This document shows positions 1 to 51,606 of a DNA stretch of 64,000 bases, in pieces; within the stretch, counting starts at the first letter, position 1, and the number at the start of each line of letters is the position of its first letter. The position numbers and the translations under genes were made by a program. Source of the stretch: Mytilus galloprovincialis. Its lineage: Eukaryota. Where the stretch lies: assembly GCF_965363235.1 (NCBI RefSeq), contig NC_134842.1:20093521-20157520 (forward strand). Direction: 5' to 3'. The notes beneath the pieces were generated by a model. The model did no database searches and was not told where the DNA came from. It saw nothing but the letters and a program-made list of their open reading frames with translations.

Positions 1-1514
1 ACAAATCACAAAAGCTCAAAGGATTAAAAGGATTAGCATCAGATATGAGTATTCATGGTCCATGCATATCAAGCAAGCATGAGAACTATGATTTTGCAAG
101 CTGTATAAAATGTGATCAGTGGGTATCTCAAGCCCAACCATGGATCTCAAGATCACGTTTGATATGGCCTTCACCTGAACTTATTTCAAACATAACTTCA
201 TGCGGTACTTTATTTGTTCCAATCGGTAATAAGGGATCTACAAATGAGAATCTTCAGTGGCGAATATCATTTTCTGTTGCAGAGAAGATACTGATATATT
301 CTTTCAGTCATACCCAGCTACTATGCTATGCTTTGATAAAGATAGTATTGACAGAAATAGTGAACAGAGAGGAAGATATACAAGGTTTATTGTGTTCATA
401 CTTTCTGAAGACCCTGATGTTTTGGATGTCAGAAGAAATTGAAATATCAGTCTGGAGACCCGACAATATCATTCCCTGTTTTATGGCCTGTTTAAAAAGG
501 TTACTATACTGTATAGAATATTCAACGTTGTTACATTATTTCATTCCTGATAACAACTTGTTCTATTTAAGGTTTAACAGTAAACAGGAGAGCACATTAA
601 TCAACTTCCTAAAACAATCATACCAAAAAGGAATTGAAATTTTCTCATCATCTCAGACTTTACAGGATTACAGAAGATTTCCATGTGAAACTACAAGATC
701 AATGTGTGAAATAACTGTATTAATGCAAATAATTATAGAGAAGATACAGTCACCTTTTCCAAATACCTTACGCATATTGAACACTTTGCTGCATCATTGT
801 AAAACTGATTTATCCAAGGTTATCTTTCAACTGTCAACTGCAAGGGCATATCAAACAGTACCGTTTGGACTACCACATGTAAATAACCCAAGCAATAAGC
901 AGCAATACAAGCTCTACAAACGTGACATGAGCCAGTTGTTGGTTGGTGTACAGTCAGATGCAGTATCAGGATGGCTGCAATTGGCTTCTTTCTTCTATGG
1001 TCACAAAAACTATTTAACATCAACAGATATAATCGATTATACTTTGTCAAAATGTACAGATGAAGCAAGATTGTCAAAGATTTCACTGAAACAGACCAAG
1101 ACACCGAAGCTTATATCACTAGTTAAGAACATACCATCTCGATATTTCGTATTCCACAAGTTTAGATTAAATTCAGTTTTCCCAATGGAACTAAAGTGTC
1201 CTCATGCCTTCAATCCATTGGCCTCAATTAGTTCTCAACCATTTGCACATTTCCTCCGGTTTTTGTGTTGTTACCACCTCCATGACTTTGAATCATGTCA
1301 GTATTGTATAAACAAGTTATTAGAAACAGTTCGTAATTACATTCCATCAAGAGAACGGTATATAGATGTACATGCATATAATTTAATATTACTAGGAATA
1401 GCTTTTCAGATGTTAGGTGACAGAGATTCAGCAAGGAAATATTTTCATATGGCTGCGTATTATGATGAACATAACTTTACATGTGCTGCAATCAGATTGC
1501 ATCAGTTTTGCTGA
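1..1514 (+). CDS. Mab-21 domain / cGAS-like receptor (cGLR) family protein, copy 1. This is the C-terminal roughly 500 aa; the 5' part, presumably the NTase core, lies upstream of the window.
   Basis: The frame is open from window base 3 to the TGA at 1512-1514. The product contains 'LIWPSPE...FVPIGNKGSTNENLQWRISFSVAEKILI', which matches the cGAS/Mab-21 signature recalled from memory ('SWPASTQEGL...YLVPKHAKEG...ETWRLSFSHIEKEIL'). Near the start, 'NYDFASCIKC' resembles the segment around the third catalytic acidic residue ('VDITLALE' in cGAS, 'ITPAFKC' in MAB21L1). The whole copy is collinear with the paralogue at 30239-32907. Confidence 0.75.
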   Translation, partial: KSQKLKGLKGLASDMSIHGPCISSKHENYDFASCIKCDQWVSQAQPWISRSRLIWPSPELISNITSCGTLFVPIGNKGSTNENLQWRISFSVAEKILIYSFSHTQLLCYALIKIVLTEIVNREEDIQGLLCSYFLKTLMFWMSEEIEISVWRPDNIIPCFMACLKRLLYCIEYSTLLHYFIPDNNLFYLRFNSKQESTLINFLKQSYQKGIEIFSSSQTLQDYRRFPCETTRSMCEITVLMQIIIEKIQSPFPNTLRILNTLLHHCKTDLSKVIFQLSTARAYQTVPFGLPHVNNPSNKQQYKLYKRDMSQLLVGVQSDAVSGWLQLASFFYGHKNYLTSTDIIDYTLSKCTDEARLSKISLKQTKTPKLISLVKNIPSRYFVFHKFRLNSVFPMELKCPHAFNPLASISSQPFAHFLRFLCCYHLHDFESCQYCINKLLETVRNYIPSRERYIDVHAYNLILLGIAFQMLGDRDSARKYFHMAAYYDEHNFTCAAIRLHQFC

Positions 1515-2927
1515 GGTCTGAATTAACACAAAACAGAGTCATTGTTAACACAAGACATACAATTGAGTGCATCCCAATATTTTCATAATGTTTCTTATCA
1601 ATAAGATCTAACTGATATGGTGATACAAACTTTTAAAGTAAAACTCCTTGTACTAAAATCTTAAAATGAAATTCAAATATTCCCTGAAATCACACAAAAC
1701 AAGCAATGAATAGTTGAACACTGGTGTTGACAATAGGCTTCATAGTAATAACTTTGTTTGCAATCTTAATAATGCATAACTGATGCCATTAATTGTTCAA
1801 GTCAAATTATTTTACAAATGACAAAATGTTTTGAGGACAAGCTTTTGTACAGTCATTTTCTATGCGGTACATATATGAATTCCCCCTTAAAAAATATTGG
1901 ATTTCCAATTATTTAAGCCTTGCGCCAAATTTGTACGAAAAAGACATTACTTGTTAAAATATCCATCTGTGGCATCCAAATTGATACATGTTGATATAGA
2001 ATGTATAGACTGTTTCGTGAATTAGCAAAATTTAAACATATACTGGATATTCATCTGTATGATAAGAGCTGTAATTATAAAAATAGAAATGTTTAATGCC
2101 TTGTAAAATTCTGTTATTAACAGATATTCATCAATAAACATGCTGCTATAGTCGGGAATCTTTAATGAAGAAAGGTCTACGGTTGTGATGACACTTTGGT
2201 GTCAGTAACATATTGAATTTGACATATTTGACCATTTTGCACCCAAATTTTGGACCAGATAAAATCCAGGGTTTAAGACCGAGAAACATATTTGACAAAT
2301 ATTAACATCTTTGTAAAATGCATCTAGTAGCAAAGTATATGTTAAGCTAAAGCCTTGGTTAATACAATAAGATAAATGAGATTTCAAAACGAGCTAGGCT
2401 ATATTTGAAAATATGACAATTTAAGTTTTGAACCAAAAATACTTTGCGTGACACAATATTATACTTTATAGCAATACTGATGTTTGACAGACTAAAGTTT
2501 AAATAATGTTAAACTAAATCTTTTTTTGGGTGAGTTTTAATACTTCTTAATTTTCGATTTGAAGGGGTAGATAAAGTGGTCATGACCTTCTCATAATTTT
2601 GTTATATAACGAAATAACCATGCTATCGTCATGGTACACAATGATACAGGGAGATAACCTTGTAAAAATCAGCTAAACATTTTAATCCTGTTTTATTGTT
2701 TGTAAAATATCAATCTTCGCAATGATCAGAAATGGTGTTTGTCAAACTCACCATAAATCCAATGAAAATTTTTTCAATAAAGTGTGAGGTTCAATTTTTT
2801 AATTTTATTTTTGTCAAACAGTCCGAGTAAATATTTCGTCAAAATTTTATGATATTAAACAAGCCAAATTATTTGATTCAAGGTGTTCGGTACCAATTTA
2901 AAGTCAATCAATCATTTAACTTTACAG

Positions 2928-3640
2928 TTAATAATTATATTCTACAAAAAGAGGGACGAAAGATACCAAAGGGACAGTCAAACTTATAAATCTAAAACAA
3001 ACTGACAACGCCATGGCTAAAAATGAAAAAGACAAATAGAAAAACAATAGGACACATGACACAACATAGAAAACTAAAGAATAAACAACACGAACCCCAC
3101 CAAAAACTAGGGGTGATCTCAGGTGCCCCGGAAGGGTAAGCGGATTCTGTTCCACATGTGGCACCCGTCGTGTTGCTTATGTGATTACAAATCCGGTAAA
3201 TAGTCTAATTCGGTAGGTAACATTTATGAAAGGGAAGGGGATTGTAGTTACGACGTAAGGAACATATCCGATATCATTTGTGAAACGGTTATTCCATAAC
3301 GATCAACCAACTCGTGATGGCGTCCGTAAAATTTACGAAGGGATGATTTCAACTTCACCATTTGGAACTCTTGGTTTAATAGCTTCCTTGTGAGCAGTAA
3401 CCCTCTATCAAGAAAATCATGATAGGAAATGCAAGCACGGGAATATCGTATCAATTGGGAGATATCTACCCCGTATGCAGGAGCTGCTGGAATGTTGCTA
3501 CTTAGAAATGGGAAGTTCACAATTGGAAAGCTGAAATCATCTCTTTTGTCGTAAAGTTTTGTTTTCAACCGACCCTCATTGTCAATTTCTAGATGTAAGT
3601 CAAGATATGAAGCCAATGATGTACATTGTATAGTTTTATA
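2928..3640 (-). mobile_element. 5'-truncated non-LTR retroelement copy: C-terminal RT region plus ~320-bp 3' UTR, inserted in the 3' flank of cGLR copy 1.
   Basis: ORF 3248-3649(-) reads 'YLDLHLEIDNEGRLKTKLYDKRDDFSFPIVNFPFLSSNIPAAPAYGVDISQLIRYSRAC...', a paralogue of the C-terminal part of the RT ORF at 34952-35620. It is nearly identical to 25483-26235 on the opposite strand. The orthologous empty site is at ~34040 in the paralogous flank. Confidence 0.8.
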
Positions 3641-3769
3641 ATCAATCAATCATTTCACTTCACAGCATGTTTAATATGCCTTTAACTACTGAAATATTTT
3701 AACTACCAAATGAGGAAGTACATGTAATAGTATATAGATGTATTCTGAGAGAATCCATGACAAATGGCC

Positions 3770-6290
3770 CCACTGGCAAATCGCCCCACACCTAATTGTA
3801 ATTGCCCTCATGCTGAGCCGGATATACACAAGCTTGCACACAAGGTAATAGTCTGCACCAAGGCATATCCTGCTACTCTCTTACTCCTAAACGCGGCAGT
3901 AGTTGAGAAGATGCATCAATACCCATGAACTACCGCACTTGATATGAGCAACCTACCACGAGGCCACAGAGGAGGCAGTATGACAATGAAAGTTATATAC
4001 ATTGTCATAAAGACTCCAGAATTGACCTTTATCGGGTTTGCACATGTGATGTATAGTCGTTCTTTAACTTTGTTTCACATTAATAATGGGTTACCTTTAG
4101 TATGATAGATATGTGTTTGTGCTTATTTCAATTACCTTATGCGGATATGATGGTTTCCCTTATTCTTATTCCCTGTATCCCTTTCCTAACCTGTTGTTTA
4201 TTTTTTATTTAATCAACATATGGTTCGATTTATCTCAGTTCTTCATTGGTCAAAATTTTATTATGACGTCTCATAAAAAAAGGCAACCATGTCTGAGACG
4301 TCACGTTAAAAGAACACATCATTTTGCAGGTCGAAAAGAAGGATTAAGATTGTTTGCGTATCGTCTAAAAGCATTAGAGAAACAGATTCCACCACCAAAT
4401 CTCATGTGATATGATACTTATCCAATCTCGACAGTTAAATTTTAAATATTTTTCCTTGATGTTTTGGATGTGTAAAATGAACTGCTGACTCACAAACTCA
4501 ACTGAATTTTGTAGTTTGGTATTTTTGTTACTGGTTTTTGTATTCAATTTAATATTGACCATGAATTAACAAAATACAAAATTCATATTGAATAAAACAA
4601 TAATTTATCGCATATGTTTTTTGAGAGTTTCTGTAAAATTGAGAAAGGAAATGGTGAATATGTCAAAGCGACAACCACCCGACCATAGAGCAAACAACAG
4701 CCGAAGGCAACCAATGGGTCTTCAATGTAGCGAGAATTCCCGCACCCGTAGGTGTCCTTCAGCTGGCCCCTAAAATATGCATAATAGTACAGTGATAATG
4801 GACGTCATACTAAACTCCGAATTATACACAAGAAACTAAAATTTAAAATCATACAAGACTAACAAAGGCCAGAGGCTCCTGACTTGGGACAGGCGCAAAA
4901 TTGCGGCGGGGTTAAACATGTTTATGAGATCTCAACCCTCCCCCTATACCTCTAGCCAATGTAGAAAAGTAAAACAATAACAATACGCACATTAAAATTC
5001 AGTTCAAGAGAAGTCCGAGTCTGATGTCAAAAGATGTAACAAAAGAAAATAAATAAAATGACAATAATACATAAATAACAACAGACTACTAGCAGTTAAC
5101 TGACATGCCAGCTCCAGACCTCAATTAAACTGATTGAAAGATTATGTCTTCATTCTGTACCGGTCTCTGTCTAACGGAGCTATCATTGAAGTTCTGCTTC
5201 AATTCAGTTATGAATAATTTGCAAACAACAAGTGGGTATGTACATAAAACATAAAGTACGTCGAAATCTTACACGACTATTTTTTTTCAAATGTTTTAAA
5301 ATGTAAGGTAAAGTAATTTTGACCAGATTAAGGATTTATAAAAGGAGAGGAGAAAAAAAGTCAAGTGAAATGTTTGTGGTGTGTTCATCTTGTACATGTA
5401 ACTCTGTCTCCTAGATCTTTTTTGGAATATTGACAACTGTTATAGTTGATTAATGTAAAAACTGAAAACTGTGTAGTTATAAACTAGAGCCTGTGTCGCC
5501 CATCTGATATTTTTTTTTACAATTGATGCATGAAATAATGCAACCGCTGTACTTTTGCTTTAGTTTTAGAGATATAAGACACAAACTGCATGTTTCCCCT
5601 ATATTCTATTTTAGTCATGTTGGTAGGCAGACAGGGTCATTGAACACATTTTTCAAACTAGTTACCCTGATGCGTATTGTGGTCAAGTTTGGTTAAACCT
5701 GTCTCAGTTGTAAAAGAATTTGTTACAAACATTTGCGATTTTTTTTTAAATTTGACATTAAAGTGCAGTAACTTCTTATTAGGTCAAATGATCATTTTGG
5801 TAATTTGAACTATTTGAAGATCTTATTTTGCTGAAAATTATTGCTGTTTACAAATCTTCTCTATCTATAATAATATTACAATTACATTGTCATTGTATAA
5901 CCAAACTCTGCAAAATGTTCTTAAAATTACTTGTTTTGGGGCAGCAACCCACGAAAGGGTCGTCCGATTTGTCTGAAATTTCAGGGCAGAAATATCATGA
6001 CCTGACTAACAATTCAACCCTATTCAAATGCTTTGTTTTGAGAGATATAAACCATAATTTTCAATTTAAAAAAAAGTTCTATTTAAAGCCATGGCGGCCA
6101 TCTTAGTTGATTGGCTGGGTCATCGGACATATTTTAAACTAGATACCCAAATGATGATTGTGGCTAAGTTAGGTTAAATATGGCCCAGATGATTCAGAGA
6201 AGAGTTTTTTAAAAGTTGACGACGACGGACGCTGATGAAAAAACCTCAATAAGCCCTTTGGACCGGGAGAGCTAAAAAGAGAGCATTATC
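3770..6290 (+). repeat. Composite dispersed repeat 'Rep-B', copy I (~2 kb after removing the insertion at 4640-5150). It ends in ~540-bp sub-units with a (GACGAC)n tail.
   Basis: Collinear with 39590-40290 plus 43000-44995 (copy II) and with 51230-51540 (partial copy III). Examples: 3840-4100 vs 39790-40000; 4280-4500 vs 40110-40290; 4500-4640 vs 43000-43140; 5150-5700 vs 43140-43900; 5700-6290 vs 44440-44995. Confidence 0.65.
4640..5150 (-). mobile_element. Retroelement 3'-tail fragment (possibly SINE-like), inserted into the composite repeat 3770-6290.
   Basis: Reverse complement of 28540-29000 and 35880-36370. It is absent from the homologous position at 43140 in the other copy of the composite repeat. 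Confidence 0.6.
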
Positions 6291-7379
6291 TTAGTCAAAG
6301 TCTTTGTTAAAATAACATTTGTAAACCAAACACTGTGTATTCCGAATTCCGGTCTAATGATGGGTCCCAATACTCTTAATTACATCAATTATAACCTGTC
6401 AAAACCGGATTGTCTAATTAATTTTAAATAATAACAGTATTGTTTGATATGCAATGAAAACATATTTTTCAGGATAAATAATTAGACAGGGGTTAAACCG
6501 TGAACTTAAACATGGTATTAGTGAGCTGTTCTAGTGAAACAATGTGTCAATTACACTGAAAGGCACGCCGAATATATCTCGGATAGAACTTGCCTTGTAA
6601 CTTGGATAATATTTTTTAAATCGCAAAGTAACAAATGTTCATCGTGTCTTTCGAACTCCTGGTTCTCTGTTGCGAACCCCTCAACCAATTACCTTGATTA
6701 TTGATGAACACCCGTATGACAACAATCGATGTTGTCGTAGTGTACACTGTACGACAATGTTTCGATTGTGATTAAATTTTGTTTGATAAATGTACTGGCT
6801 TTTTAATCGGTCATACCAATGTTGGAAATTATCGATCATGGTGGTAAAACGAAAATCTTGTGTCACAATCCTAACAATGCGAGTATAATGATGCAAATGC
6901 AAACAACGAAAAGCAAAGTGAAAGTGAAATTGACAAGTCGGAAACTGATGCTACCCAGGTCTAATTGATATACAAGGATATGTAAATCAAGATTAAACTA
7001 ATATTTTTTCTTTAATTCGAGGAACAACCAGTTTCTTGAATTTCTATAGCCAATGAATATGAAGATTCAAAGCAACGATCATACGAACTTATTACGTTAT
7101 TGTGTTTTGTATTTACCAGTTTATAATTTACAATCAGACAGAATCTTCATATGCAACATATCGGACGTCACAAGTCATTCACTTCCGGTAAATACGGAAA
7201 TCTGAATAAACTAGCTCAGTGTCCGAAACGGCCTTTTTTATAGTCCCGTTGCCGGCCAGTTTATACAGGTTTTACTGTATATTAAGGGCTTATATTGGTT
7301 GGTTTCACTTTATATAACAAGGAGGTCTCAATAGTCTGAATCGCTCACCTTGATTTTTTGGCATTTATCTTTCGTTTAA

Positions 7380-8440
7380 GAGTCTTAGTGTCCAATTTCA
7401 TATTAGTTTGTTTTTCAAACAAATTGTGTAAATTTGTCCTTTAAAGGGCAATCACTCTTTAAGGAGTCAATTGACAATCTTGGTCATATGAACTTATTTG
7501 TAGATCTAACTTTACTGAACATATTTGCTGTTAACAGCTTATCTTTATCATTAAAACTATTCAAGATAATATCCAAACACTGCAAAATTTCCTAAAAATT
7601 ACCAATTTAGTGGCAGTAACCCAACAATGGGTTATTAAATTCATCTAAAAATTTCAGGGGTGATAGAACTTTACCTCATGCACACTTTAACCTAATGTCA
7701 GATTTGCTCTAACTGCTTTGGTTTTTGAAATATAAGCAAAACTGTTTACCCCTATGAACTATTTTTAGTCATGGCGGCCATATCTATCGACGAAACAAAA
7801 AATAAAACACAAACTATATTCTAGACATCCTAAGGATCATTCAGCTTAAGTTTGGTTGGAATTGTTTCAGTGGTTTCAGAAAAGAAGATTTTTTAAAGTT
7901 GGAAAACATAATAAACAGATTGTGTAAAAATGTCCTAAAAGGGCAATAACTCTTTAAGGGATCAATTGACACGTTTGGTCATATAAAAACTTATTTATAG
8001 ATCTTACTTTGTTGAACATATTTGCTGTTTACAGTTTATCTTTATCATTAGAACTATTCAAGATAATAACCAAAAACTACAAAATTTCCTTAAAATTACC
8101 AATTTAGTGGCAACAACCCAACAATGGGTCATAAGATTCATCTGAAAAGTTCAGGGCTGATAGAACTTTACCTTGTGAACACTTTAACTCATGTAAGATT
8201 TGCTCTAACTGCTTTGTTTTTGAGATATAGGCAAAAACTGCATTTTACCCCTATGTTTTATTCTTAGTCATGGCGGCCATGTTTTTTGACGGAACAGAAA
8301 ATAAAACACAAACTTTATTGTAAATACCCTAAGGATCATTCAGCTTAAGTTTGGTTGGAATTATTCGTTTCAGAGGAGAAGATGTGTCAAATAGTTTACA
8401 CAAGACGGACGACGACGTCGACGACAGACGACGACGGACG
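7380..8440 (+). repeat. Two tandem ~530-bp units of the Rep-B terminal sub-repeat family (includes the palindrome 'atggcggccat' and a (GACGAC)n tail).
   Basis: 7440-7900 is nearly identical in arrangement to 7920-8440. It is homologous to 5700-6290 and to 43900-44440 and 44440-44995. Confidence 0.65.
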
Positions 8441-8529
8441 CCAAGTGATGGCTAAAGCTCACAATTCCTTCGGAACGGTGAACTAAAAATGGGCAGTGGA
8501 GATAAATGTCGCTATCAAATCCGTGGAAG

Positions 8530-11500
8530 GGACAGTTTAACTTGTTACGTGAGGTGTAAGCTATTGTTCGAAGTTGATGACTGTGAAATGAAGAACAATA
8601 AAAGCACTGGTTTAGTTTTCTTTGTTTTATCAAGGACATACATGGATTGTGTGTCATGAATTTGAAACACAATATTCCATTTTTATGATAATTAAATATG
8701 TAATTCTTACCTAATGAATAAAATCCTTGTAACTTAAATATGTTATGTATTCAGTGTATGAAAAACCTAACATATTACACAGATCTGGTGTCAAGTTGTA
8801 AATTAAAATACAATAAAAATAATTTTGAAACCTAATATGTTCGAGGATATGGTGTCAAATTTAAAAATTGTCCCTGGAAAAATAAATACAATATATCAAA
8901 TAAATGTGAAATCAAACATGTAACATAAATAGGATGTCATGTTGTAAAATTGTGCCTGTAAAGTCAATTTGCATCTCCATTTCCTGACCTTTCCAAAAAT
9001 GAATATGCATAATATAAAATGTAGTCTGAGGAAAGTGGCTGGCTTTGAAACTAAATGTTGTCTGAAGAGAGTGTCTGGCTTTGATACTAAATGTAGTCTG
9101 AGGAGAGTGGCTGGCTTTGATACTAAATGTAGTCTGAAGAGAGTGGTTAGCTTTGATACTAAATGTAGTCTGTAGAGAGTGGCTGGCTTTGATACTAAAT
9201 GTAGTCTGAAGAGAGTGGCTGGCTTTGATACTAAATGTAGTCTGAAGAGAGTGGCTGGCTTTGATACTAAATGTAGTCTGAGGAGAGTGGCTGGCTTTGA
9301 TACTAAATGTAGTCTGAGGAGAGTGGCTGGCTTTGATACTTAATGTAGTATGAAGAGAGTGGCTAGCTTTGATACTAAATGTAGTCTAAAGAGAGTGGTT
9401 AGCTTTGATACTAAATGTTCTCTGTAGAGAGTGGCTGGCTTTGATACTAAATGTAGTCTGAAGAGAGTGGCTGGATTTGATACTAAATGTAGTCTGAAGA
9501 GAGTGGCTGGCTTTGATACTAAATGTAGTCTGAGGAGAGTGGCTGGCTTTGATACTAAATGTAGTCTGAAGAGAGTGGCTGGCTTTGATACTAAATGTAG
9601 TCTGAGGAGAGTGTCTGGCTTTGATACTAAATGTAGTCTGAGGAGAGTGGCTGGCTTTGATACTAAATGTAGTCTGAAGAGAGTGGTTAGCTTTGATACT
9701 AAATGTAGTCTGTAGAGAGTGTCTGGCTTTGATACTAAATGTAGTCTGAGGAGAGTGGCTGGCTTTGATACTAAATGTAGTCTGAAGAGAGTGGCTGGCT
9801 TTGATACTAAATGTAGTCTGAGGAGAGTGGCTGGCTTTGATACTAAATGTAGTCTGAAGAAAGTGGCTGGCTTTGATACTAAATGTAGTCTGAAGAGAGT
9901 GGTTAGCTTTGATACAAAATGTAGTCTGAGGAGAGTGGCTGGCTTTGATACTAAATGTAGTCTGAGGAGAGTGGCTGGCTTTGATACTAAATGTAGTCTG
10001 AAGAGAGTGGCTAGCTTTGATAATAAATGTTGTCTGAGGAGAGTGGCTGGCTTTGATACTTAATGTAGTATGAAGAGAGTGGCTAGCTTTGATACTAAAT
10101 GTAGTCTGTAGAGAGTGTCTGGCTTTGATGCTAAATGTAGTCTGAGGAGAGTGGCTGGCTTTGATACTAAATGTAGTCTGAAGAGAGTGGCTGGCTTTGA
10201 TACTAAATGTAGTCTGAGGAGAGTGGCTGGCTTTGATACTAAATGTAGTCTGAAAAGAGTGGCTGGCCTTGATACTAAATGTAGTCTGAAGAGAGTGGTT
10301 AGCTTTGATACAAAATGTAGTCTGAGGAGAGTGGCTGGCTTTGATACTAAATGTAGTCTGAGGATAGTGGCTGGCTTTGATACTAAATGTAGTCTGAAGA
10401 GAGTTGCTAGCTTTGATAATAAATGTTGTCTGAGGAGAGTGGCTGGCTTTGATACTTAATGTAGTATGAAGAGAGTGGCTAGCTTTGATACTAAATGTAG
10501 TCTAAAGAGAGTGGTTAGCTTTGATACTAAATGTAGTCTGTAGAGAGTGGCTGGCTTTGATACTAAATGTAGTCTGAAGAGAGTGGCTGGATTTGATACT
10601 AAATGTAGTCTGAAGAGAGTGGCTGGCTTTGATACTAAATGTAGTCTGAGGAGAGTGGCTGGCTTTGATACTAAATGTAGTCTGAAGAGAGTGGCTGGCT
10701 TTGATACTAAATGTAGTCTGAGGAGAGTGTCTGGCTTTGATACTAAATGTAGTCTGAGGAGAGTGGCTGGCTTTGATACTAAATGTAGTCTGAAGAGAGT
10801 GGTTAGCTTTGATACTAAATGTAGTCTGTAGAGAGTGTCTGGCTTTGATGCTAAATGTAGTCGGACGAGAGTGGCTGGCTTTGATACTAAATGTAGTCTG
10901 AAGAGAGTGGCTGGCTTTGATACTAAATGTAGTCTGAGGAGAGTGGCTGGCTTTGATACTAAATGTAGTCTGAAGAAAGTGGCTGGCTTTGATACTAAAT
11001 GTAGTCTGAAGAGAGTGGTTAGCTTTGATACAAAATGTAGTCTGAGGAGAGTGGCTGGCTTTGATACTAAATGTAGTCTGAGGAGAGTGGCTGGCTTTGA
11101 TACTAAATGTAGTCTGAAGAGAGTGGCTAGCTTTGATAATAAATGTTGTCTGAGGAGAGTGGCTGGCTTTGATACTTAATGTAGTATGAAGAGAGTGGCT
11201 AGCTTTGATACTAAATGTAGTCTGAAGAGAGTGGTTAGCTTTGATACAAAATGTAGTCTGAGGAGAGTGGCTGGCTTTGATACGAAATGTAGTCTGAGGA
11301 GAGTGGCTGGCTTTGATACTAAATGTAGTCTGAAGAGAGTGGCTACCTTTGATAATAAATGTTGTCTGAGGAGAGTGGCTGGCTTTGATACTTAATGTAG
11401 TATGAAGAGAGTGGCTAGCTTTGATACTAAATGTAGTCTGAAGAGAGTGGTTAGCTTTGATACAAAATGTAGTCTGAGGAGAGTGGCTGGCTTTGATACG

Positions 11501-40419: not shown

Positions 40420-40605
40420 TTATGGAAAACCAACCTGGAACCTAAATAGAACCTTGTGTAACCAAACTGGAACCTTGATAGAACCTTGTATAACCAATCT
40501 GGAACCTTTATAGAACCTTGTGTAACCAATCAGAAACCTTTATAGAACCTTGTGTAACCAATCTGGAACCTAAATATAATCATTTGTTACCAATCTGAAA
40601 CCCAA
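40420..40605. repeat. ~35-bp tandem repeat, about 5 copies ('ggaacctt(g/t)atagaaccttgtgtaaccaatct').
   Basis: Direct inspection of the sequence. Confidence 0.65.
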
Positions 40606-40974
40606 ATTAATCCTAGTCCCAGACAACATTTGTATGTTCACAACAATGGCCCAACGTATCTACATTCATTGGCTCAACGTTGGTTTTCTCGCCATCTTCC
40701 TGAACATGCATGAACATTTTGCAACTGGACGTTTAAGCAAACAACAATCTTTATCTCCAGGAATTGTACCCATATTTGAATGAATTAAATCAACACATCC
40801 ATGTTACCTATTTTTCTTAAATAATGAAAACAAAGATATGATACCAATACATAATTTATTTTAGCTAGACAAGGAGCAAATTCTTAAAAGTTAAATGTTA
40901 TGTACATGTATCTACACGTTGCAACATCAGATCTAGAATGAAAATTATAAAATATATTCATGATGTTTCATTTC

Positions 40975-41415
40975 TGTAAATGTTATTCACTTCATCAGGT
41001 TCATACAGTTATTTCCTAGTTCTGTAATTCACGTCTGACATCAGGTTCATACAGTTATTTCTTAATCTATAATTTCACTTCATGTTCATACAATCACATC
41101 CTAGTTCTGTAATTCGCTTCATCAGATTCATACAATTATTTCATTGTTCTGTAATTTCACTTCATCAGGTTCATACAGTTATTTCCTAGTTATAAATTCA
41201 CTTCATCAGGTTCATACAGTTATTTCCTAGTTCTGTAATTTCACTTCATTAGGTTCATACAGTTATTTCCTAGTTCTGTAATTTCACTTCATTCGGTTCA
41301 TACAATTATTTCCTAGTTTTGTAATTCACTTCATCATGTTCATACACTTACTTCCTAGTTCTGTTATTTCACTTCATTAGGTTTATACAGTTATTTCCTA
41401 GTTTTGTAATCTAAC
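40975..41415. repeat. 43-bp tandem repeat, about 10 copies (unit approximately GGTTCATACAGTTATTTCCTAGTTCTGTAATTTCACTTCATCA).
   Basis: Direct inspection of the sequence. Confidence 0.85.
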
Positions 41416-44400
41416 ATGGGTTGTATTCACAAGAGTGTTCCTTTTGTTTTCTGCTACACTTTCATTTGGCACTTTTTCTGAATCTGTCTTTTGTTTAATT
41501 CTTATCCAGTGTAGCAAATCTTCATAAAAATTATTTCACTGCCCCTGTAATAAAGAAATGAACAAATGAGTACTCAATGTATACTTCTTGTGAATATAAT
41601 AAATCCTAAAAGACTCTTGTTTAAAACTAGACTATATAAGGCGATGCCATAGGGATAAGGCACTCATTCCACATCTTCCAACATCTATTTAGATTGTTAG
41701 ACTTCACTGTGCTAGCTAAGTTTAGCCGGAAAATTGAGGGTAGATATGGATACAGGAAACAGAACCATGTAAAAAAATGTTCTATATATAACTAAATGAA
41801 TCATTCTAGTGAAAAAATACAAATTCAAATCTAAATACAACAGCATTATCGGTATTATAATATTTAACATTTTAATTATGCATATATATTTGCAAATTTC
41901 GAATACGATGTGGCATTAAGGATTGCTATTGTGTTACTAACTTAAAGTAATTTATTGTGCATTTTGTCCAATTCTTTTAAATTTGTATGACCTAAAAATA
42001 ATTAAACAACATTCTGAAACAGTATGCAACAAGGAAAATTCTAAAATACACTTTTCCATTGATAAGGGTTATAAATGCAATCTTCACATTTTACAAAGAT
42101 TTCAGAAATAAAATAAGTTTTATTTGTGGTTAAAAAAACATGTATTATTTGTCATTCATAATTATTGATAATCATATACGTGTATCAGAATTTTTAAAGT
42201 AACAATCAACTTACATTTTCTTTCTCTTTAGATGATGCAATTTGTCTTTTGTTTTCTTTGTTATCACTGCTTTCTTACAAATACACGACAGGAAATAGTC
42301 TCAAAAGTGACTATCCCATTACACTTATATTTCCTATAACCTTAATTACCATAGCAACTATCTTTGAAATTTGTCTAACATCTGGTCAACATCATTCTAT
42401 AGGTCAACCTTATCAGAATATGCTTGATTAACATAATGGCTGTATGAAATATCATTATGTATATAATTGCTAATTATGTTTCACAAATTAAAGTTGAATG
42501 AAAAAAGTTATAATAAATAATGAGAATAATGAATTTTAACTTTTAATCGAGCAATCTATATGTTTAACGAATAAAAAGTTATTTTGTTCTTAATACAGTG
42601 TCGGCTTTTTAGTTTTAAAAACTATCAACATTCACTTTCTGAAACAAAATCTCGAGCAAAATAAAGGTTTGATTAACATGCAAGACGGCAAACATCTTAC
42701 TTGCATTTTTTGCTATTAATTTGCTAGATATTTTTTCAAAAAAAATGAGGTACATTATTCGAACGTTTTAAGAATGTTAGTAAAATAACGTTAAAAAGTA
42801 ACTAATATTAAACGTTTCTACAACGTATTATTTGTAACATAACCAAACTGAAACTTCCACACAACGTTAAAACAAGACGTTCCTAGAACGTTGAATTGTA
42901 ACGTTTCATTTTAACGTTCTCAAAACGTTCGTCTAACGTTAAGGTCCGAAATAACCTTACAGGAACCAATCCACAACGTTCTTTGAACGTTATGTGTTTA
43001 GTGGGAACTCACAAACTCAACTGAAATTTGAATTGGAGTAAGGTATTTTTCTTATACTTTTTTGTATTCAATCTAACTTTTAGCATGAATTAACAAAATA
43101 CAAAATTCCTATTGAATAAAACAATAATTTATCGAATATGTATTCTGTACAGATCTCTGTCTTACTTTCCATCATTGAAGTACTGCTTAAACTCAGTTAT
43201 AATTAATTTGCCAACAACAAAGTGGGTATGTACATAAAACATAAAGTACGTCGAAGTCTAACACAGCTCACAATGCATGAACGAAGTAAGAAACGAAAAA
43301 CCCTTGAGTAAACATATAATGGATCTCTGTAGACGACCACACATGTAACTTTTTGTCCGTATGTTTGGACACCTTATGTTTCCAATGTTTTAAAATGTAA
43401 GGTATAGTTATTTGGACCAGATCAAGGATTTATTAAAGGAGGGGGAAATAAAATCAAGACAAGTGAAATGTATTATTCAATGTTCGAGCTGTCAAGAATT
43501 AACAATTTTTTGGACAATTTTACATCATAACATATCCATAAGTTTTATGTTTTAATGTGTTCACCCTCTACATCTAGCTATATTTCCAAAATATTTCTAG
43601 GATTATTGACAACAGCTATAGTTGTTTAATATTGAAACTGAAAACTGTGTAGATATAAACTAGAGGCTCCAAGGAGCCTGTGTCGCCCACCTGATATATA
43701 TATATTTTTTACAATTGATGCATGAAATAATGCAACCGTTATACTTTTGCTTTATTTTCAGAGATATAATACAAAAACTGAATGTTTCTCCTAGAATCTA
43801 TTTTAGCCATGTCTGTCATCTTGGTGGACAGACAGGGTAATCTGGCACATTTTTAAACAAGATGCCCTCATGTTTATTGTGTTCAGGTTTGGTTAAACTT
43901 TTCTCAGTTGTTTCAGGAGAAGAATTTTGTAAAAGATTACAAACGTTTACAAAGAAACGTTTAATTTTACTTTAAAGTTGCAATAACTCCTTATGTGGTC
44001 AATCGAGCACTTTGGTAGTTTGACTTATTTGTAGATCTTAATTTGTTGAAGATTATTGCTATTTACTGTTTGTTTATCTCCATCATTTTATAATAATATT
44101 CAAGAAAAATTTAACCCAAAACAGCAAAATTTCCTTAAAATTACTCATTCAATGGCAGCAACCCAACACCAGCTTATCTGATTCGTCTAAATATTTCAGG
44201 ACATATAGATCTTAACCTGATGAATATTTGTACCAATTATAAAATTTGCTTTGAATACTCTAGTTTTATAGATACATTGTACCACTATGTTCTATCTGAA
44301 GCCATATCCGCCATATTGGTTGGCAGGTCGGGTCATCGGACACATTTTGTAAACAAGATAACCTAATAATGATAGTGACCAAGTTTGGTTGTCTCAGAAG

Positions 44401-44999
44401 TTTCAGAGTAGAAAATTTTTGTAAGATTACAAAAGATTACAAAATTTGTTAAAAATTTACTAAAAAGGACCTTAATAACTCCTTAAGGGGTAAATAGACC
44501 ATTTTGGTCAAGTTGAATTATTTGTAGATCTTATTAGACATTATTGCTGCTAACAGTTTATCTCTATCTTTAATAATATTACAAATACATTGTTATTGTA
44601 ATAACCAAAACTGCAAAATTTCCCTACAATTACCAATTCAGGGGCAGCATCCCAACAAAGGATTGTCTGATTTTTCCAAAATTTTTAGAGCAGATATATC
44701 TTGACCTGATCAACAATTTTGCACCTGGCAAATTTGCTCTAAATGATTTGGTTTCAGAGATATAAGCCATAATCTACATTTTACCCCTATGTTCTATTTT
44801 TAGCCATAGCAGCTGTCTTGGTTGGTTGGCTGGGTTATTGGACACATTTTCTAAACTAGATACCCAAATGATGAAATATGACACAGTAGTTTCAGAGAGG
44901 ATTTCTGTAAACGCCTAACGCTGCCAGAGGCTGGACGCCAAGTGATGAGAAAAGCGCACTTGGCCCTTTGAGCAAGTTGAGCTAAAAAGATGATGTGGT

Positions 45000-45295
45000 A
45001 TAATTGCGAATGTGACATCTTTCCACAAGTGTGATCAAATGACACAGAAATTAACAACTATAAGTTACAATACGGCCTACAACAATAAGCAAAGCCCATA
45101 CTGCATAGTCAGCTATAATTGGCTAAAAAATGACAAATGTAAAACAATTCAAACGAGAAAACGGCCTAATTTATGTAGAAAAAATGAACAAAAAATCAAT
45201 TATGTAACACACCAACAAACAACAACCACTGAATTACAGGCTCCTGACTTGGGACATGCACATACATAAATAATGTGGCGAGGTTACACATGTAA
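45000..45295 (+). mobile_element. SINE-like element: the 'gatgtggtataattgcgaatg' head plus 'ggctcctgacttgggaca' tail.
   Basis: A near-identical element is at 47960-48245. The head is the same as the unit of the 52-bp array. Confidence 0.5.
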
Positions 45296-46469
45296 GCGGG
45301 ATCCCAACCCTCCCCTAACCTAAGACAGTGGTGTAACCATTGCAACATAAGAACGAGCTATAAAAATCTGTTTAAAAAGGCTGAACTCATCAGATGGATA
45401 CACATATAAATAATACAGAGTGGACGTGGCCTTTATAAACTTTCCTGTTATCTTTATCCTTTATTAGAAACGCTCAAGGCCAAAAAAATAAAACAGATGG
45501 TTAATATGAACAAAGTTTCGAAAGGTCATAGATTAAGCAAGTACAATGTCTTAATCAGAAACTGAAACTGACAAATGTTCAATTACTTGTGTATTTTATT
45601 AAAAGATTAATGTATAATGTAACACTTATCACATAACTGTTTTTTCATTTAAAGATCATATTTCAATGTATTAATGTATAAATAATATAGAATCACATAT
45701 CACATGTATCATGTACTGTACATATCACAGAATTAAATATAAATCACTCAAAAATGTTACAGTTATTATTACAATACTACAGAAGTAGAAAATATTCAGA
45801 CAAAACATTTATGAAGTTGATTATCTTAAGGATGCAGCAATGTATTTTTATTAACTATTAGTACTCTTTTTGTATGCATCATAACTGCAAATGGCAGCAG
45901 TGTAGCCATTTTGTGCTAAGGTGGCGTAAAACAAACATCAATCAATCAATCATAATTGCACATGTCTTTTAAACTCCTCTGGTCATTTCATTTTTTACTG
46001 CATGGATTACATTTAAATTTTACATGCAAAATACAAATTACGTAAGAAATCTTCCACACTGTTCCCTAGTTCTAAATCCCTGATGAGATTTGAGTGTTCC
46101 TTTTTCATTTGTAACAACCACTTATAAACAATAACAAGTTCTTTCTTTACAAGTTTCACATTTTGAGATTTTCCTTTGTACAGGATTATGAAGTCGACAG
46201 CATGATCAGATGCATCATGGATAATCATGGCATCTGGGATCATAGTCTTGTCTATAATTGCATATTCATTTATTAAGAATATAAAGATTAAGATTGATGC
46301 CAGGACTCTTTCTGCTAGTAACTGCACACTGATACCTGCAAAAAGATATAAAAACTAAATTCAAATCTTAAAAGCAAAGACTAAACTGTTGACACATGTT
46401 ATTATGATAGTATGATCCAAATGCTGAAATGTCAGTAATAAAACCTATTCATATATGACAAGTCTACAA

Positions 46470-46745
46470 TATGTGAGCCTCTGGCCTTTGTTAGTCTTGT
46501 ATGATTTTAATTTTTAATTTTAGTTTCTTGTGTATAATTCGGAGTTTAGTATGACGTCCATAATCACTGAACTAGTAACATATTTGTTTAGGGGCCAGCT
46601 GAAGGACTCCTCCGGGTGCAGGAGTTTATCGCTGCATTGAAGACCCATTGGTGGCCTTTGGCTGTTGTCTGCTCTATGGTCGGGTTGTTGTCTCTTTGAC
46701 TCATTCTCCATTTCCATTTCCATTCTCAATTTTATTCATTGGACA
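46470..46745 (-). mobile_element. Retroelement 3'-tail fragment.
   Basis: 'ctctggcctttgttagtcttgtatgatttta...ggggccagctgaaggactcctccgggtgcaggagttt...' matches 36120-36370 and the reverse complement of 4640-4900. Confidence 0.55.
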
Positions 46746-46948
46746 GCTGGGTCAACACCTAAACTGGGTTTTAATATATATACTTTTAAGAGCTAATATT
46801 GTTTGCTTTAATTCTATATGAAAATGTGCAGAGGACTCACATAACAGGATAGGCTGAACTGAATGTTTGTCCAAACCTACAGTGGACTATTTTCAAATAG
46901 AAAATTTTACAAATATAAAACACAAGAAACCTGAAGTAGATAGTAGGT

Positions 46949-47400
46949 ATGAATATAAGACATGAAAATAATTTAAAACAAGAATGTGTCCATAGTACAC
47001 GGATGCCCCACTCGCACTATCATTTTATATGTTCAGTGGACCGTGAAATTGTGGTCAAACTTATAATTTGGAATTATAATTACAAAGATCATATCATAGG
47101 GAACATGTGTACTAAGTTTCAAGTTGATGTAACTTTAACTTTATCAAAAACTACCTTGACCAAAAACTTTAACCTGAACTTTGCACTATCATTTTCTATG
47201 TTCAGGTGACCATGAAATTGGGGTCAAAACTATAATTTGGCATTAAAATTAGAAAGATCATATCATGGGGAACATGTGTACTAAGTTTCAAGTTGATTGG
47301 ACTTCAACTTCTTCAAAAACTACCTTGACCAAAACTTCAACCTGAAGCGAACGGACGCACAGACGGACGGATGAACGAACGGAGGCACAGACCAGAAAAC
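46949..47400 (+). mobile_element. Two tandem copies of a (GACGGA)n-tailed SINE-like element.
   Basis: '...cactatcattttctatgttcag...gggtcaaaactataatttggcattaaaattagaaagatcatatcatggggaacatgtgtactaagtttcaagttgattggacttcaacttc...cctgaagcgaacggacgcacagacggacggatgaacgaacgg'. Family members also lie at 52440-52740 and 57010-57300. Confidence 0.6.
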
Positions 47401-47504
47401 ATAATGCCCCTCTACTATCGTAGGTGGGGCATACAAATCTATCATGAAAAGATATATGCTCTGTATTTACTTGACATGCAGCAAATCATGATCAAACCAG
47501 TGCT

Positions 47505-49950
47505 AGGGGTAATTTAACTTGTAATGGTGTGTAAGCTATGAATGCTCTTAGTTGTGAGATGAGGAATTATTTAAGCTGTCTGTTTTAGTTTTCTTTCACT
47601 TTGTTTTATCAAGGATATCAAAGGAATTTTATGTCATGAATTTGATTCACAATATTCCATTTTCAGGATAATAAAATGTGTTATTCTTACCTAAGGAATA
47701 AAGTCCTTGTAACTTGAGAATGTCATGTATTCTATTGTATGATAAACCCAACATGTCACATAGATCGGGTGTCAAGTTGTAAAATTGTCCCTGGAAAATT
47801 AAATAAAATGTATATAAGGTGTGAAACTCAACATGTTAATACATAGGTCTGGTCTCTAAGTTTTAAAATTGTTCTTGTAAAATTAAATACATTTATGATT
47901 ATTATATGTGAAACCAAACATGTTTCTGTTGAAGACCATACTTTGACCTATAATGTATAAAAAAGAAGATGTGGTATGATTGCCAATGAGACAACTATTC
48001 ACAAAAGACCAAAATGACACAGACATTAACAACTATAGGTCACCGTACGGCCTTCAACAATGAGCAAAGCCCATACCGCATAGTCAGCTATAATAGGCCC
48101 CTATAAGACAATGTAAAACAATTCAAACGAGAAAACTAACGGCCTTATTTATGTAAAAAAATGAACGAAAAACAAATATGTAACACATAAACAAACGACA
48201 ACCACTGAATTACAGGCTCCTGACTTGGGACAGGCACATTGTTTACTTTTACAAATTGTAACTTGGATGGAGTGTTGTCTCATTGGCACCCATACCACAT
48301 CTACTTATATCTATTATGTTACATAGATCTGGTATCAAGTTGTAAAATTGTCAGCGATGTCACATTATTATCAAACTTCAACTATAATCAAGTGTAAACC
48401 CTATAAAGCAGGAATCAAACCAAGATGAGACCAGAAATAGCACTTTAACAGATTATCTTATTTTTTCTGTGTATTAAAAAAAACATAATAAATATCAGCC
48501 ATAAGACACATGCATGCTGCTAAAAATTTATAATATTAATGTGTATATACAGAAAACCGAAGATATGGTGTCAAGTTGTAAAATTCACCCTGTAAAATCA
48601 ATTTGCATCTCAATTTGCTGACCTTTCCAAAAATGAATGGGTATATTATAAAATGTAGTCAAGAGAGAGTGACTGGCTTTGATACTAATTGTAGTCTTGA
48701 ATGTTGAAATGATTTATTATTAATCATCACAAATACAGTCCCAAAGTATCCTGAAGTTCTTGCAATTTGTTCTCAAATAAGTTTCACACAGGTTCTAAGC
48801 ATTTCATGCAAAAATATACACTAGACACGGGATGACACCAAGCATAAATCTTGTACTTGTAAATCTTTATTTATCAAAAAACTATTCATGCAGGGAAGGT
48901 AATTTAACTTAGCTAACCTCATATAAGGGAGGTAATGCATCCATCAGTGACAATCTCTTCTTCACCCTAACAAGTCCTTGCCATATTCCTCCCAAGTCTG
49001 ATGGGTCTGTAAATAATGGAAAAAAAATGTAAAAAATATAAGATACACAAATGGATTAAATATTATCAAAAATAAAATTATCTATAAAAAATGTTCTTTT
49101 ATGAGCATTGATGGGAACATTTTTAGGATTATTGAAAAATTGTTAATTCCTCATAAAAAATATAAGATACACAAATGGATTAAATATTATCAAAAATAAA
49201 ATTATCTATAAAAAATGTTCTTTTATGAGCATTGATGGGAACATTTTTAGGATTATTGAAAAATTGTTAATTCCTCACTATCAAAATTCAAGAGCTATAT
49301 AATTTTTGAGAAAACCTATCCTGTGAAAATTTGATAATACTAAAAACATTGCAGTAATTTCTGAATAAATCTAACTAAAAATAAATCTCTAAACTCGCTC
49401 ATTTTCTTATGATTGGTCACTGCTTGGGAGCTCCTTACTTTTTGGATCAATTATTCTTTTAATTACATAGGCTTTTTAATGGAAATAAAGTAGAAAATGG
49501 AAGGACCTCAAAGTTTTTCTGACGCATTCTCAATCTGTTTTGAATTTGTAACGTCGTACAACAATGTGTTGACAAAACCAATTGTTGTATGAAATCAAAG
49601 ATACAAAATTATTTATTTTTTTCAATGGAATTCAATACATGGTCATTGGCAAAAAGAAACTCATTGTCAAGACCCTTTTGCATTATTGATACACATGCAA
49701 GTCTACATCCATCATAACAAGTTTCTTTAAGTTATATATTGCGTATAATTCTTGTACCTCTATATTAATTGTTATATTATCAATACCTTTGTTTTCTTTA
49801 TTTTCTGTTATTTCTCTTTTAGTTTCCTACAACGAAAAAGGGCCATAATCATCTGATCAATTATGTATTTGATATGTGAATACATTATCACTGAGAAGTC
49901 ACTTTATATATATATAGTTTCAGGATTAAAAAAACCCCAAATTTTCAATA
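47505..49950 (+). repeat. Paralogous unexpanded copy of the satellite-hosting element. It contains ~1.3 monomers of the 36-bp unit at 48655-48705 and an internal ~120-bp duplication at 49020-49260.
   Basis: Collinear nucleotide similarity to 8530-9020 and 19020-20400. 'aaatgtagtcaagagagagtgactggctttgatactaattgtagtcttgaatgttgaaat' corresponds to the end of the array at 18990-19035. Confidence 0.7.
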
Positions 49951-51540: not shown

Positions 51541-51606
51541 GATTACATTTGGTGGTAAATATGATTCTTATTTAATATGACTGTAATTAAGTTGGCATGT
51601 CATTAC

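Follow-up and report, generated by a model that had tools for sequence, protein, structure and literature searches.

Diverged same-strand copies of a cGLR/Mab-21 gene and of the DNA downstream of it in Mytilus galloprovincialis, probably part of a decaying tandem array

Introduction

Tandemly arrayed gene clusters, such as immune receptor families, are shaped by unequal crossing-over, birth-and-death and gene conversion. Lineage-specific radiations of cGLR (cGAS-like receptor, Mab-21 family) genes have been described in bivalves (Li et al., PMC9980059), which bears out the context that a preliminary description had proposed for the DNA studied here. We analyzed a stretch of 64,000 nucleotides from Mytilus galloprovincialis (NC_134842.1, positions 20,093,521 to 20,157,520), hereafter the window. 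As in the described radiations, the window carries a gene with a Mab-21 nucleotidyltransferase fold and a Mab-21_C domain from a very large mussel family, with several neighbouring paralogs on one chromosome. The published work gives gene counts rather than locus structure, whereas the window holds one cut copy and one pseudogene; its subfamily also differs in a C-terminal extension of ~250 amino acids with a weak TPR match, and its function is putative. Like ordinary tandem clusters, the window has same-strand paralogs with non-coding flanks in common, both intact and dead copies, partial copies fused together, divergence that varies as a mosaic along the unit, and weak codon-position bias. 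Nothing essential separates it from such clusters; only its spacing is unusual (~30 kb versus ~8–20 kb in Mytilus relatives), because of a 10-kb satellite and TE insertions.

Results

We compared the window with itself by BLAST. Approximately 18 same-strand, same-order matches join 1–20413 to 30239–49958, and both blocks read gene, 3' flank, Rep-B, satellite host, all on the + strand, with best E-values of 1e-128 or lower, which excludes chance. Paired matches are offset by 29.5 to 39.6 kb. The gene is paired at 50–1312 with 30699–31952 (82.9%, 1272 bp) and at 607–1595 with 32002–32988 (76.9%), and the flank at 1812–1907 with 32993–33086, 2031–2943 with 33083–34039 (including the 2160–2600 and 2600–2930 stretches recognized earlier) and 3615–3750 with 34043–34181. 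Within Rep-B, 3797–4048, 4111–4197, 4309–4496, 4488–4634, 5123–5373 and 5363–6280 match 39764–40023, 40019–40106, 40109–40292, 43007–43160, 43115–43471 and 43540–44990, respectively; in the satellite host, 8514–8802, 8929–9066, 18987–19791 and 20153–20428 match 47491–47783, 48563–48701, 48664–49621 and 49677–49972. Thus, every landmark pair listed in the preliminary description was recovered in the same order and orientation, as a collinear chain rather than as isolated TE-sized matches, and matches between the blocks that lie outside the chain can be identified as pieces of TEs. After removal of precise copy-specific insertions, homology runs unbroken from the gene via the flank and Rep-B to the satellite host, and the segments join at identical nucleotides in both copies. 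These are adjacent, same-orientation copies whose collinear homology extends into non-coding DNA, as in a tandem segmental duplication. Because the copy-specific insertions are precise, with empty sites and target site duplications (TSDs), the surrounding DNA is homologous by descent, which supports two blocks related as contiguous DNA rather than transposons that met by chance. Each block spans ~20 kb, of which only ~6 kb (6.0 kb) can be aligned; once copy-specific DNA is taken away, the core amounts to ~7.1 kb in unit I (the part within the window) and ~7.9 kb in unit II, well short of the unit of at least 20 kb suggested before. The window starts inside gene I, so that the DNA upstream of it, and with it the complete unit and the junction of the duplication, lies off-window.

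The window start truncates gene copy I (1–1514, +) at its 5' end; the reading frame stays open across all 504 visible codons, from base 3 through the stop codon (1512–1514). Pfam searches confirmed Mab-21 and Mab-21_C for both gene copies. The match of copy I to the Mab-21 nucleotidyltransferase core domain (PF03281; E 8.6e-7, 29.6 bits, cut-off 24.1) covers the C-terminal part of that domain, the remainder being off-window, and the homologs of copy I also carry PF03281; Mab-21_C (PF20266), the HhH/H2TH-like C-terminal domain, was found in copy I (E 6.7e-15) and in the open reading frame 30940–31326 of copy IIa (E 1.6e-18). The best homologs of copy I are Mytilus proteins (67–71% identity), in mussels the family reaches 546 database proteins (E <= 0.001), and some relatives bear the RefSeq name "cyclic GMP-AMP synthase-like receptor 2". 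The domain matches place the gene copies in the cGLR/Mab-21 family, with ligand-activated cyclic (di)nucleotide synthesis as a putative activity.

In unit II, pseudogene IIa (30239–31966, +) begins at the ATG of the family and lacks approximately the last 60 codons; it has at least one frameshift (30658–30697) and premature stops at 30742, 30766, 31324, 31408 and 31546. It retains the GS...DxD motif, as SGSK.EGLDL.GSD.D[IV]M in IIa and Mytilus homologs, which fits G[S/G]...[D/E]x[D/E], IIa being a pseudogene and the N-terminus of copy I lying off-window. Fragment IIb (31967–32907, +) covers codons ~311 to the stop, with two frameshifts and extra stops. The K2P distance is 0.216 between I and IIa and 0.280 between I and IIb; because IIb stands at 0.28–0.29 from I and IIa alike, as diverged as any other paralog, it is what remains of an old paralog, not the product of a recent internal duplication. 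The gene of unit II is thus a dead composite in which IIa is fused to a 5'-truncated, equally old IIb. Accordingly, the claim of a cGLR gene in each unit holds for the open gene of unit I, whereas unit II carries a frameshifted, prematurely stopped pseudogene with a fused fragment.

The 3' flank of copy I (1515–2946, +) is homologous to 32908–34040, within a unit II flank (32908–34173, +) that continues from IIb; 1812–1907 and 2031–2943 align to 32993–34039 with K2P 0.19–0.32. The same flank adjoins Mytilus paralogs. It is followed by T5, the 5' part of Rep-B: unit I keeps the flank end and a T5 remnant (3615–4112, +) that lacks ~0.5 kb of T5 and contains one inverted monomer of a 31-bp satellite (3759–3796), and T5 of unit II (34174–40035, +) consists of the pieces 34174–34339, 36368–36525 and 39585–40035. 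The flank-to-T5 junction of unit II also occurs in M. edulis (L002, 15598–15943), and in M. trossulus (L007) T5 lies immediately before the upstream spacer. Downstream of unit II (50044–51563, +) are a short dispersed repeat, X (50044–50311), 9.5 copies of the 31-bp satellite (50417–50709) and a third, partial Rep-B copy of T5, copy C (50720–51563), before which no gene or flank was found. The three landmarks can hardly be called independent, as had been proposed: Rep-B is a composite, T5 being spacer material that recurs in Mytilus paralog spacers and as the third copy in the window, and its ~0.5-kb tandem repeat, R490, is found alone, in matching orientation, downstream of a M. californianus paralog (L012, 19544–21655).

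We refer to the Rep-B 3' part plus the satellite host as E (4113–20413 in unit I; 40036–49958, +, in unit II). In unit I, the Rep-B 3' part (4113–8405, +) comprises a unique part (4113–5400) and R490 (5401–8405; shared with unit II at 43561–44990), and the satellite-hosting segment (8406–20413, +) comprises a left arm (8406–9016), 277 copies (10 kb) of a 36-bp satellite (9017–19020) and a right arm (19021–20413). Unit II has a seed of ~1.4 units of the 36-bp motif (48651–48701), and homology between the units stops at approximately 20413–20428. E contains internal tandem repeats and no open reading frames. At its ends (4113/20413 and 40036/49958), we found no terminal inverted or direct repeats, TSD or other termini of a transposable element. 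Neither the remainder of the window nor ~230 kb of Mytilus loci contained a further copy, R490 in L012 excepted; metagenome word scans for E gave chance matches only.

Insertions separate the copies further. A LINE-like fragment (2947–3614, −) occurs in copy I only, is 95% identical to 25555–26218, belongs to a family with 88–98% identical copies in Mytilus loci, and has a precise empty site in unit II (34039/34043). Unit I also has a LINE 3' end (4634–5153) with a 7-bp TSD (TTCTGTA). Unit II has inserts at 36526–39584 (3.06 kb) and 40293–43006 (2.7 kb; imperfect TSD of ~9 bp), together with a 2-kb LINE (34340–36367), TE-rich DNA (44991–47399) and a TE (47882–48562) that the preliminary description lacked. 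The 2-kb LINE and the 3.06-kb insert split T5 of unit II, and their sites are empty in copy C and L007. These inserts, with the 10-kb satellite against ~1.4 units, account for the offset differences, as had been proposed. The ~30-kb period is inflated by the satellite and ~12 kb of TE insertions.

The inter-gene spacer (20414–30238, +), which is the upstream region of gene II, holds a 52-bp satellite (24146–25052), a promoter-proximal 53-bp minisatellite (29939–30134) and LINE fragments (25555–26218, 27819–29033), and is collinear with the upstream regions of paralogs in M. edulis (L002, 18656–21914), M. trossulus (L007, 610–9263) and M. galloprovincialis (L004, 14739–17457). Clusters of the same subfamily, whose genes are single-exon, were found in M. 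edulis (OY782961.1, 75.75–76.07 Mb), M. trossulus (CM071709.1, 10.18–10.48 Mb) and M. galloprovincialis (UYJE01001098.1). They share with the window the upstream spacer (both satellites), the gene, the 3' flank, T5 and TE families at 88–98% identity, but lack the satellite host and the unique part of the Rep-B 3' region. Spacer, gene and flank were common to 10 of 10 Mytilus loci (~230 kb), whereas these two segments of E occurred in 0 of 10. Same-strand neighbours lie ~8–20 kb apart in M. edulis and M. galloprovincialis: 7.8 kb in L004 and 20.3 kb between P0005 and P0007 of M. edulis, where L002 also has a second stretch resembling the upstream spacer, ~8.7 kb downstream of the P0002 gene. 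Because orientations in the M. trossulus cluster are mixed (+ − +), the family probably did not grow by simple tandem duplication alone. The three window copies are not monophyletic: their clade (95–100% bootstrap) also holds Medu_P0002, Mtro_P0004 and Mgal_L004a, and I, IIa and IIb are no nearer to one another than to paralogs of other Mytilus species, which argues against a recent local duplication step. None of the Mytilus copies compared had protein identity above 72% or K2P below ~0.21 to the window genes, and no ortholog was found.

Divergence between the units was not uniform. K2P was 0.290 ± 0.019 in the flank versus 0.164 ± 0.009 in most of E (z = 5.9), and was heterogeneous within E (chi2 24.9 on 10 df), so that the uniform neutral divergence expected along a unit copied in a single event, as first proposed, was not observed. 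This difference argues for more than one event, or gene conversion. Gene third positions gave 0.256–0.287, and codon-position bias was weak (0.225/0.170/0.256). Overall, copies I and II, adjacent and on the same strand, are old: they differ by K2P 0.16–0.32, 3–5 times the divergence of a M. edulis/M. trossulus ortholog pair (0.063–0.07).

Discussion

We consider it likely that the window is part of a decaying tandem array of single-exon cGLR genes, whose units multiplied, diverged and were stretched by insertions. An assembly artefact (a haplotig or a collapsed or expanded repeat) or a chance meeting of unrelated transposons is effectively refuted by the collinear chain, the divergence and the copy-specific insertions: many TE families are common to the window and the compared mussel genomes, and a 124-bp × 2 repeat (49030–49277) is 100% identical, but the copies cannot be alleles, being 16–32% diverged, with many indels, and differing in their TE insertions and gene lesions, and the chain keeps its order and strand where off-chain matches are TE pieces. 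It is also unlikely, though less so than the other alternatives, that only the gene and 3' flank (~3.5 kb) were duplicated, with E as a non-autonomous mobile element or a block acquired later after T5, either by two insertions at a preferred site or by one insertion followed by conversion to the neighbouring unit. Some bivalve non-autonomous elements have internal tandem repeats and no open reading frames, as E does; the E copies are significantly more alike than the flank or the gene third positions, and none of the 10 Mytilus paralog loci contains the unique parts of E. However, both units have the T5|E junction at an identical nucleotide, and homology crosses it with no divergence step (T5 tail 0.245, first E piece 0.231); the lack of termini, and of additional copies in the window and in ~230 kb of Mytilus DNA, also argues against mobility, and R490 beside the M. 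californianus paralog suggests that at least this repeat is old spacer.

We regard as quite improbable a history in which T5-E-T5 was an old LTR-like composite, inserted once in the ancestral spacer, with the T5-only Mytilus loci as solo-LTR derivatives. Direct T5 copies of ~0.85 kb bracket E of unit II (from 34174, and copy C), T5 starts with TG, and L007 and L002 have T5 without E; yet no second T5 follows E of unit I, the 3' edge of T5 is fuzzy with no visible TSD, gag/pol-like open reading frames were not found, X and the 31-bp satellite separate E of unit II from copy C, and T5 of L007 lacks its last ~300 bp, unlike clean solo-LTR formation. Against the array reading itself counts that long-term unit membership has to be assumed for the satellite host and the unique part of the Rep-B 3' region, as none of the 10 Mytilus loci carries them; the divergence heterogeneity, unexpected under a single event, likewise counts against that simple form.

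The observed collinear homology, the insertions, the lesions of the pseudogenes, the measured divergence and the way in which Mytilus paralogs are arranged lead us to infer a mechanism (unequal crossing-over, deletions, conversion) and an order of events for the array. The original repeating unit may have been ~8–12 kb, with an upstream spacer including the 52-bp satellite, a 1.9-kb gene, ~1.5 kb of 3' flank, T5 and further spacer, which in this lineage would have held the Rep-B 3' part, the 0.5-kb repeat and the future satellite host. Well before M. edulis and M. trossulus split, unequal crossing-over or segmental duplication would have multiplied the units; afterwards, the two studied here would have diverged by 16–32% and gained copy-specific TE insertions, at least seven in all. 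The 36-bp motif of unit I would have expanded from ~1.4 to 277 copies (10 kb), so that TE insertions and satellite growth stretched the spacing to ~30 kb. Gene II may have arisen when the two old paralog remnants were joined via a deletion or an old internal duplication. The lone third T5 copy suggests that a further unit was lost after unit II, and a later exchange between units, by unequal crossing or gene conversion, would explain why the Rep-B 3' part and host are less diverged. The two gene copies and their downstream DNA are thus relatives by duplication, although not by one clean 20–30 kb duplication, and the locus is an ordinary, partly dead stretch of a gene array also present in other Mytilus mussels.

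Results and Discussion

We found that this locus belongs to an old tandem array of cGLR genes that is decaying, and is not one duplication of at least 20 kb with a live gene in each unit. When the window was compared with itself by BLAST, with more sensitive runs on sub-regions, all the landmark pairs of the preliminary description were recovered, each on the + strand and with their order preserved. The gene aligned at 50-1312 with 30699-31952 (82.9% identity) and at 607-1595 with 32002-32988 (76.9%), followed by the 3′ flank (1812-2943 with 32993-34039; 3615-3750 with 34043-34181), the repeat Rep-B (3797-6280 with 39764-44990, in seven pieces), and the satellite host (8514-9066 with 47491-48701; 18987-20428 with 48664-49972). 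These matches are not due to chance, since E-values reach 1e-128 and below, and they form an ordered same-strand chain rather than isolated TE-sized matches without collinearity, with block-to-block offsets of 29.5 to 39.6 kb. Matches off this order or strand were few, and all were recognizable TE fragments, such as a LINE 3′ end at 4634-5153 with copies at 28526-29033, 35847-36368, and 46475-46735. Homology between the two blocks, units I and II, ends at ~20413 and ~49958, respectively.

The flanks of each proposed insertion were checked against the empty site of the other copy, and this comparison bore out the proposal that copy-specific insertions account for the differences in offset. Unit II is contiguous at the sites of two insertions found only in unit I, a LINE fragment (2947-3614) and the LINE 3′ end at 4634-5153, which has a 7-bp TSD (TTCTGTA). 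A 2-kb LINE (34340-36367), a 3.06-kb insert (36526-39584), and a 2.7-kb insert (40293-43006, with an imperfect TSD of ~9 bp) interrupt unit II at sites that are uninterrupted in unit I and/or in a third copy of T5, the 5′ part of Rep-B; unit II alone also carries a TE at 47882-48562 and a TE-rich stretch at 44991-47399. Removal of the insertions and the satellite leaves a core of ~7.1 kb in the window part of unit I and ~7.9 kb in unit II (~6.0 kb of it alignable); therefore, the blocks are homologous by descent as one contiguous stretch, but one far shorter than the unit of at least 20 kb that had been proposed. Within the right arm of the unit II satellite host, a 124-bp x 2 tandem duplication with 100% identity (49030-49277) either arose very recently or reflects an error of assembly. 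Identity is 95% between the LINE-like copies at 2947-3614 and 25555-26218, and 88-98% between these and the copies from M. trossulus, M. edulis, and M. galloprovincialis, indicating that this family was recently active across Mytilus. ORFs in LINE-like fragments at 3248-3649 (-), 25496-25921 (+), and 34952-35620 (+) carry the motif ...YDKRDDFSFPIVN[FY]PFL... and had no Pfam match.

The Pfam domain Mab-21_C was detected in both gene copies, and Mab-21 in copy I. The mussel family is huge, with 546 proteins at E <= 0.001 in the protein search; the top hits were all from Mytilus, where the relatives are single-exon genes of 1.9 kb, and some relatives are named cGAS-like receptor by RefSeq. A cGLR gene had been placed at the head of each unit, which holds for unit I, where the frame is open from base 3 to the stop at 1512-1514 (504 codons, with the N-terminus off-window), but not for unit II, where copy II is not a gene. 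Its first piece, IIa (30239-31966), is disrupted by a frameshift at 30658-30697 and by five premature stops and lacks the last ~60 codons, and the adjoining piece, IIb (31967-32907), spans codons ~311 to the stop with two frameshifts and more stops; the 3′ flank, T5, and the remainder of unit II run on from IIb. IIb is not a recent internal duplicate of IIa, because on the same columns K2P is larger for IIa-IIb (0.28-0.29) than for I-IIa (0.20-0.22); the shared-column values were 0.198 for I-IIa, 0.256 for I-IIb, and 0.281 for IIa-IIb. Most simply, IIb is the remnant of another old array member joined to IIa by deletion, with a very old internal duplication as a possible alternative. The closest database protein to the window genes is 67-71% identical, and no ortholog of gene I or copy II was found among Mytilus (protein identity <=72%). 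Over 630 bp (L003 10496-11129; window 90-722), gene I shares 90% identity with the P0008 gene of M. trossulus, but ~79% over the remainder, a mosaic that suggests gene conversion or recombination among paralogs.

We compared the window with ten loci surrounding the closest Mytilus proteins. The gene is common to 10/10 loci, and the upstream spacer and 3′ flank are common to nearly all: common upstream pieces include 23068-24208 and 29041-30238 (with a 53-bp minisatellite), and the flank is common up to ~34143 (unit I equivalent, 3693). The 52-bp satellite itself was found in L002 (M. edulis) and L007 (M. trossulus), and TE families common to the window and these loci are 88-98% identical, which places the window in Mytilus or a very close relative. 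M. galloprovincialis L004 holds two same-strand neighbouring copies 7.8 kb apart, and P0001 (755 aa; UYJE01001098.1, L004 10001-20492) is a chimeric gene model that merges these two single-exon cGLR copies (L004 9505-11561 and 17338-20520, the second with a ~1.3-kb insertion) across the spacer. M. edulis P0005 and P0007 are same-strand neighbours 20.3 kb apart, and in L002 a second upstream-spacer-like stretch begins ~8.7 kb past the gene. The orientation in the M. trossulus cluster is + - +; LOC134727321/LOC134727322 of this species were discarded as a tandem pair, their arrangement being head-to-head.

Repeats also accompany these genes. The 53-bp minisatellite (29939-30134, 3.7 copies) immediately precedes the start codon of gene II, is found before most Mytilus paralogs, and has expanded to ~1.1 kb ahead of the M. 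californianus paralog (L012 8852-9978); it is a promoter-proximal, variable-length repeat conserved across the subfamily. Another repeat associated with the cGLR cluster is a family within 52801-54232 (53902-54232, also 52801-53083), which surrounds the M. californianus paralog with tandem arrays (L012 4863-5339, 14144-14622, and 17708-18531) and lies just upstream of M. edulis P0002 (L002 8726-9468).

Rep-B is composite. T5 comprises 34174-34339, 36368-36525, and 39585-40035, and its third copy, C (50720-51563), is 72-85% identical. In L002 the gene flank runs straight into T5, and in L007 T5 is directly followed by the upstream spacer; the ancestral spacer therefore ran flank, T5, upstream spacer, next gene. 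In unit I, ~0.5 kb of T5 is lost, and exactly at this gap stands a single inverted, degenerate monomer (3759-3796) of a 31-bp satellite whose array (50417-50709, 9.5 copies, 94% match) lies directly upstream of C, a placement that points to rearrangement at the T5 5′ edge. The 3′ part of Rep-B, namely a unique part and the ~0.5-kb tandem repeat R490, forms together with the satellite host block E (E_I, 4113-20413; E_II, 40036-49958). In the same orientation, R490 is also present 7.6 kb downstream of an M. californianus paralog, at a locus that lacks both the unique part and the satellite host; neither of these was found in any of the ten Mytilus loci. The T5/E junction is at the identical nucleotide position in both units, no terminal repeats, TIRs, or TSDs were found at the ends of E, and a 32-mer conserved between E_I and E_II had 0 matches in the metagenome scan. 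T5-E-T5 could possibly be an LTR-like element, but this reading is weak because it predicts a second T5 after E_I and none was found in unit I.

The duplication was justifiably described as ancient. For orthologs of M. edulis and M. trossulus (loci P0005/P0075), K2P is 0.063 over the gene and 0.07 over the 3′ flank. Divergence between the window copies is three to five times as high: K2P is 0.216 for I-IIa and 0.280 for I-IIb, third codon positions give 0.256-0.287, and the pooled flank of unit I vs II gives 0.290 +/- 0.019. An NJ tree with bootstrapping did not join I, IIa, and IIb in a clade of their own; they grouped with Medu_P0002, Mtro_P0004, and Mgal_L004a (95-100% support), their branches being long and unresolved. 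However, a single event is not supported: E without R490 has a K2P of 0.164 +/- 0.009 (z = 5.9 vs the flank; patchy within, 0.09-0.26), and one duplication with neutral drift does not predict this difference. The lower divergence of E fits a later event between units, either unequal exchange or gene conversion, and it also fits acquisition of E at a later time followed by copying between units. K2P differed little by codon position (0.225/0.170/0.256), which suggests weak constraint or diversifying change, as is expected both of a fast-evolving immune family and of a pseudogene.

The satellite host of unit I contains a 36-bp satellite (9017-19020; 10 kb, 277 copies, 88% match by TRF) with a strong G-over-C skew (~0.47-0.50), and the matching position in unit II holds ~1.4 units of the motif (48651-48701). 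This paired view is the most interesting by-product of the analysis. Units II and I may represent the states before and after the birth of the satellite, or the array may instead have collapsed in unit II. The 31-bp satellite shows a similar contrast, with its one inverted monomer in unit I against the 9.5-copy array beside C. If copy II is ancestral, the pair would represent a dated de novo amplification from a near-single-copy seed within duplicated DNA, younger than the divergence of the host copies (~K2P 0.16). The commonest 20-mer of this satellite had 2 matches in the metagenome scan, both isolated chance matches of 22-26 bp.

Unit I is followed by the spacer leading into gene II. Beyond unit II, a short and dispersed repeat, X, comes first, then the 31-bp satellite and the lone T5 copy C; the unrelated DNA past C is rich in repeats and showed no more Mab-21 homology within the window. 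On the simplest reading, the array would once have continued with a further unit, ordered E, spacer, gene, flank, T5, and all DNA between E_II and the T5 of that unit would later have been deleted. In several Mytilus loci, the piece at the window end (63743-64000) comes after the flank, but it was rejected as evidence of a third unit: its presence upstream of genes as well, and in either orientation, marks it as a dispersed repeat. A 117-aa ORF at 57184-57537 (-) matches the clathrin propeller repeat PF01394 (E 2.4e-6, above the curated cut-off) but had no homolog in the protein search; it was discarded as a flanking-gene marker and is probably a pseudo-exon or captured fragment. An 87/174-bp satellite at 58704-60224 (up to 97% match, ~11 copies of the 87-bp unit) lies downstream of the array and is unrelated to the duplication.

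Overall, the observation in the preliminary description was confirmed, and its interpretation was partly supported. Birth-and-death is a well-known mode of evolution for tandem arrays, and the locus reveals no new mechanism and no new kind of element. Radiations of cGLRs in bivalves have already been described (PMC9980059). The locus shows at the nucleotide level the growth and decay of a very large bivalve cGLR family, in which an array unit of ~8-12 kb, common across Mytilus species, would have been remodelled by TE insertions, deletions fusing neighbours, probable inter-unit exchange, and satellite expansion. These results are useful for annotating mussel immune-gene clusters, where chimeric models such as P0001 in M. 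galloprovincialis merge neighbouring copies, and also bear on presence/absence variation.
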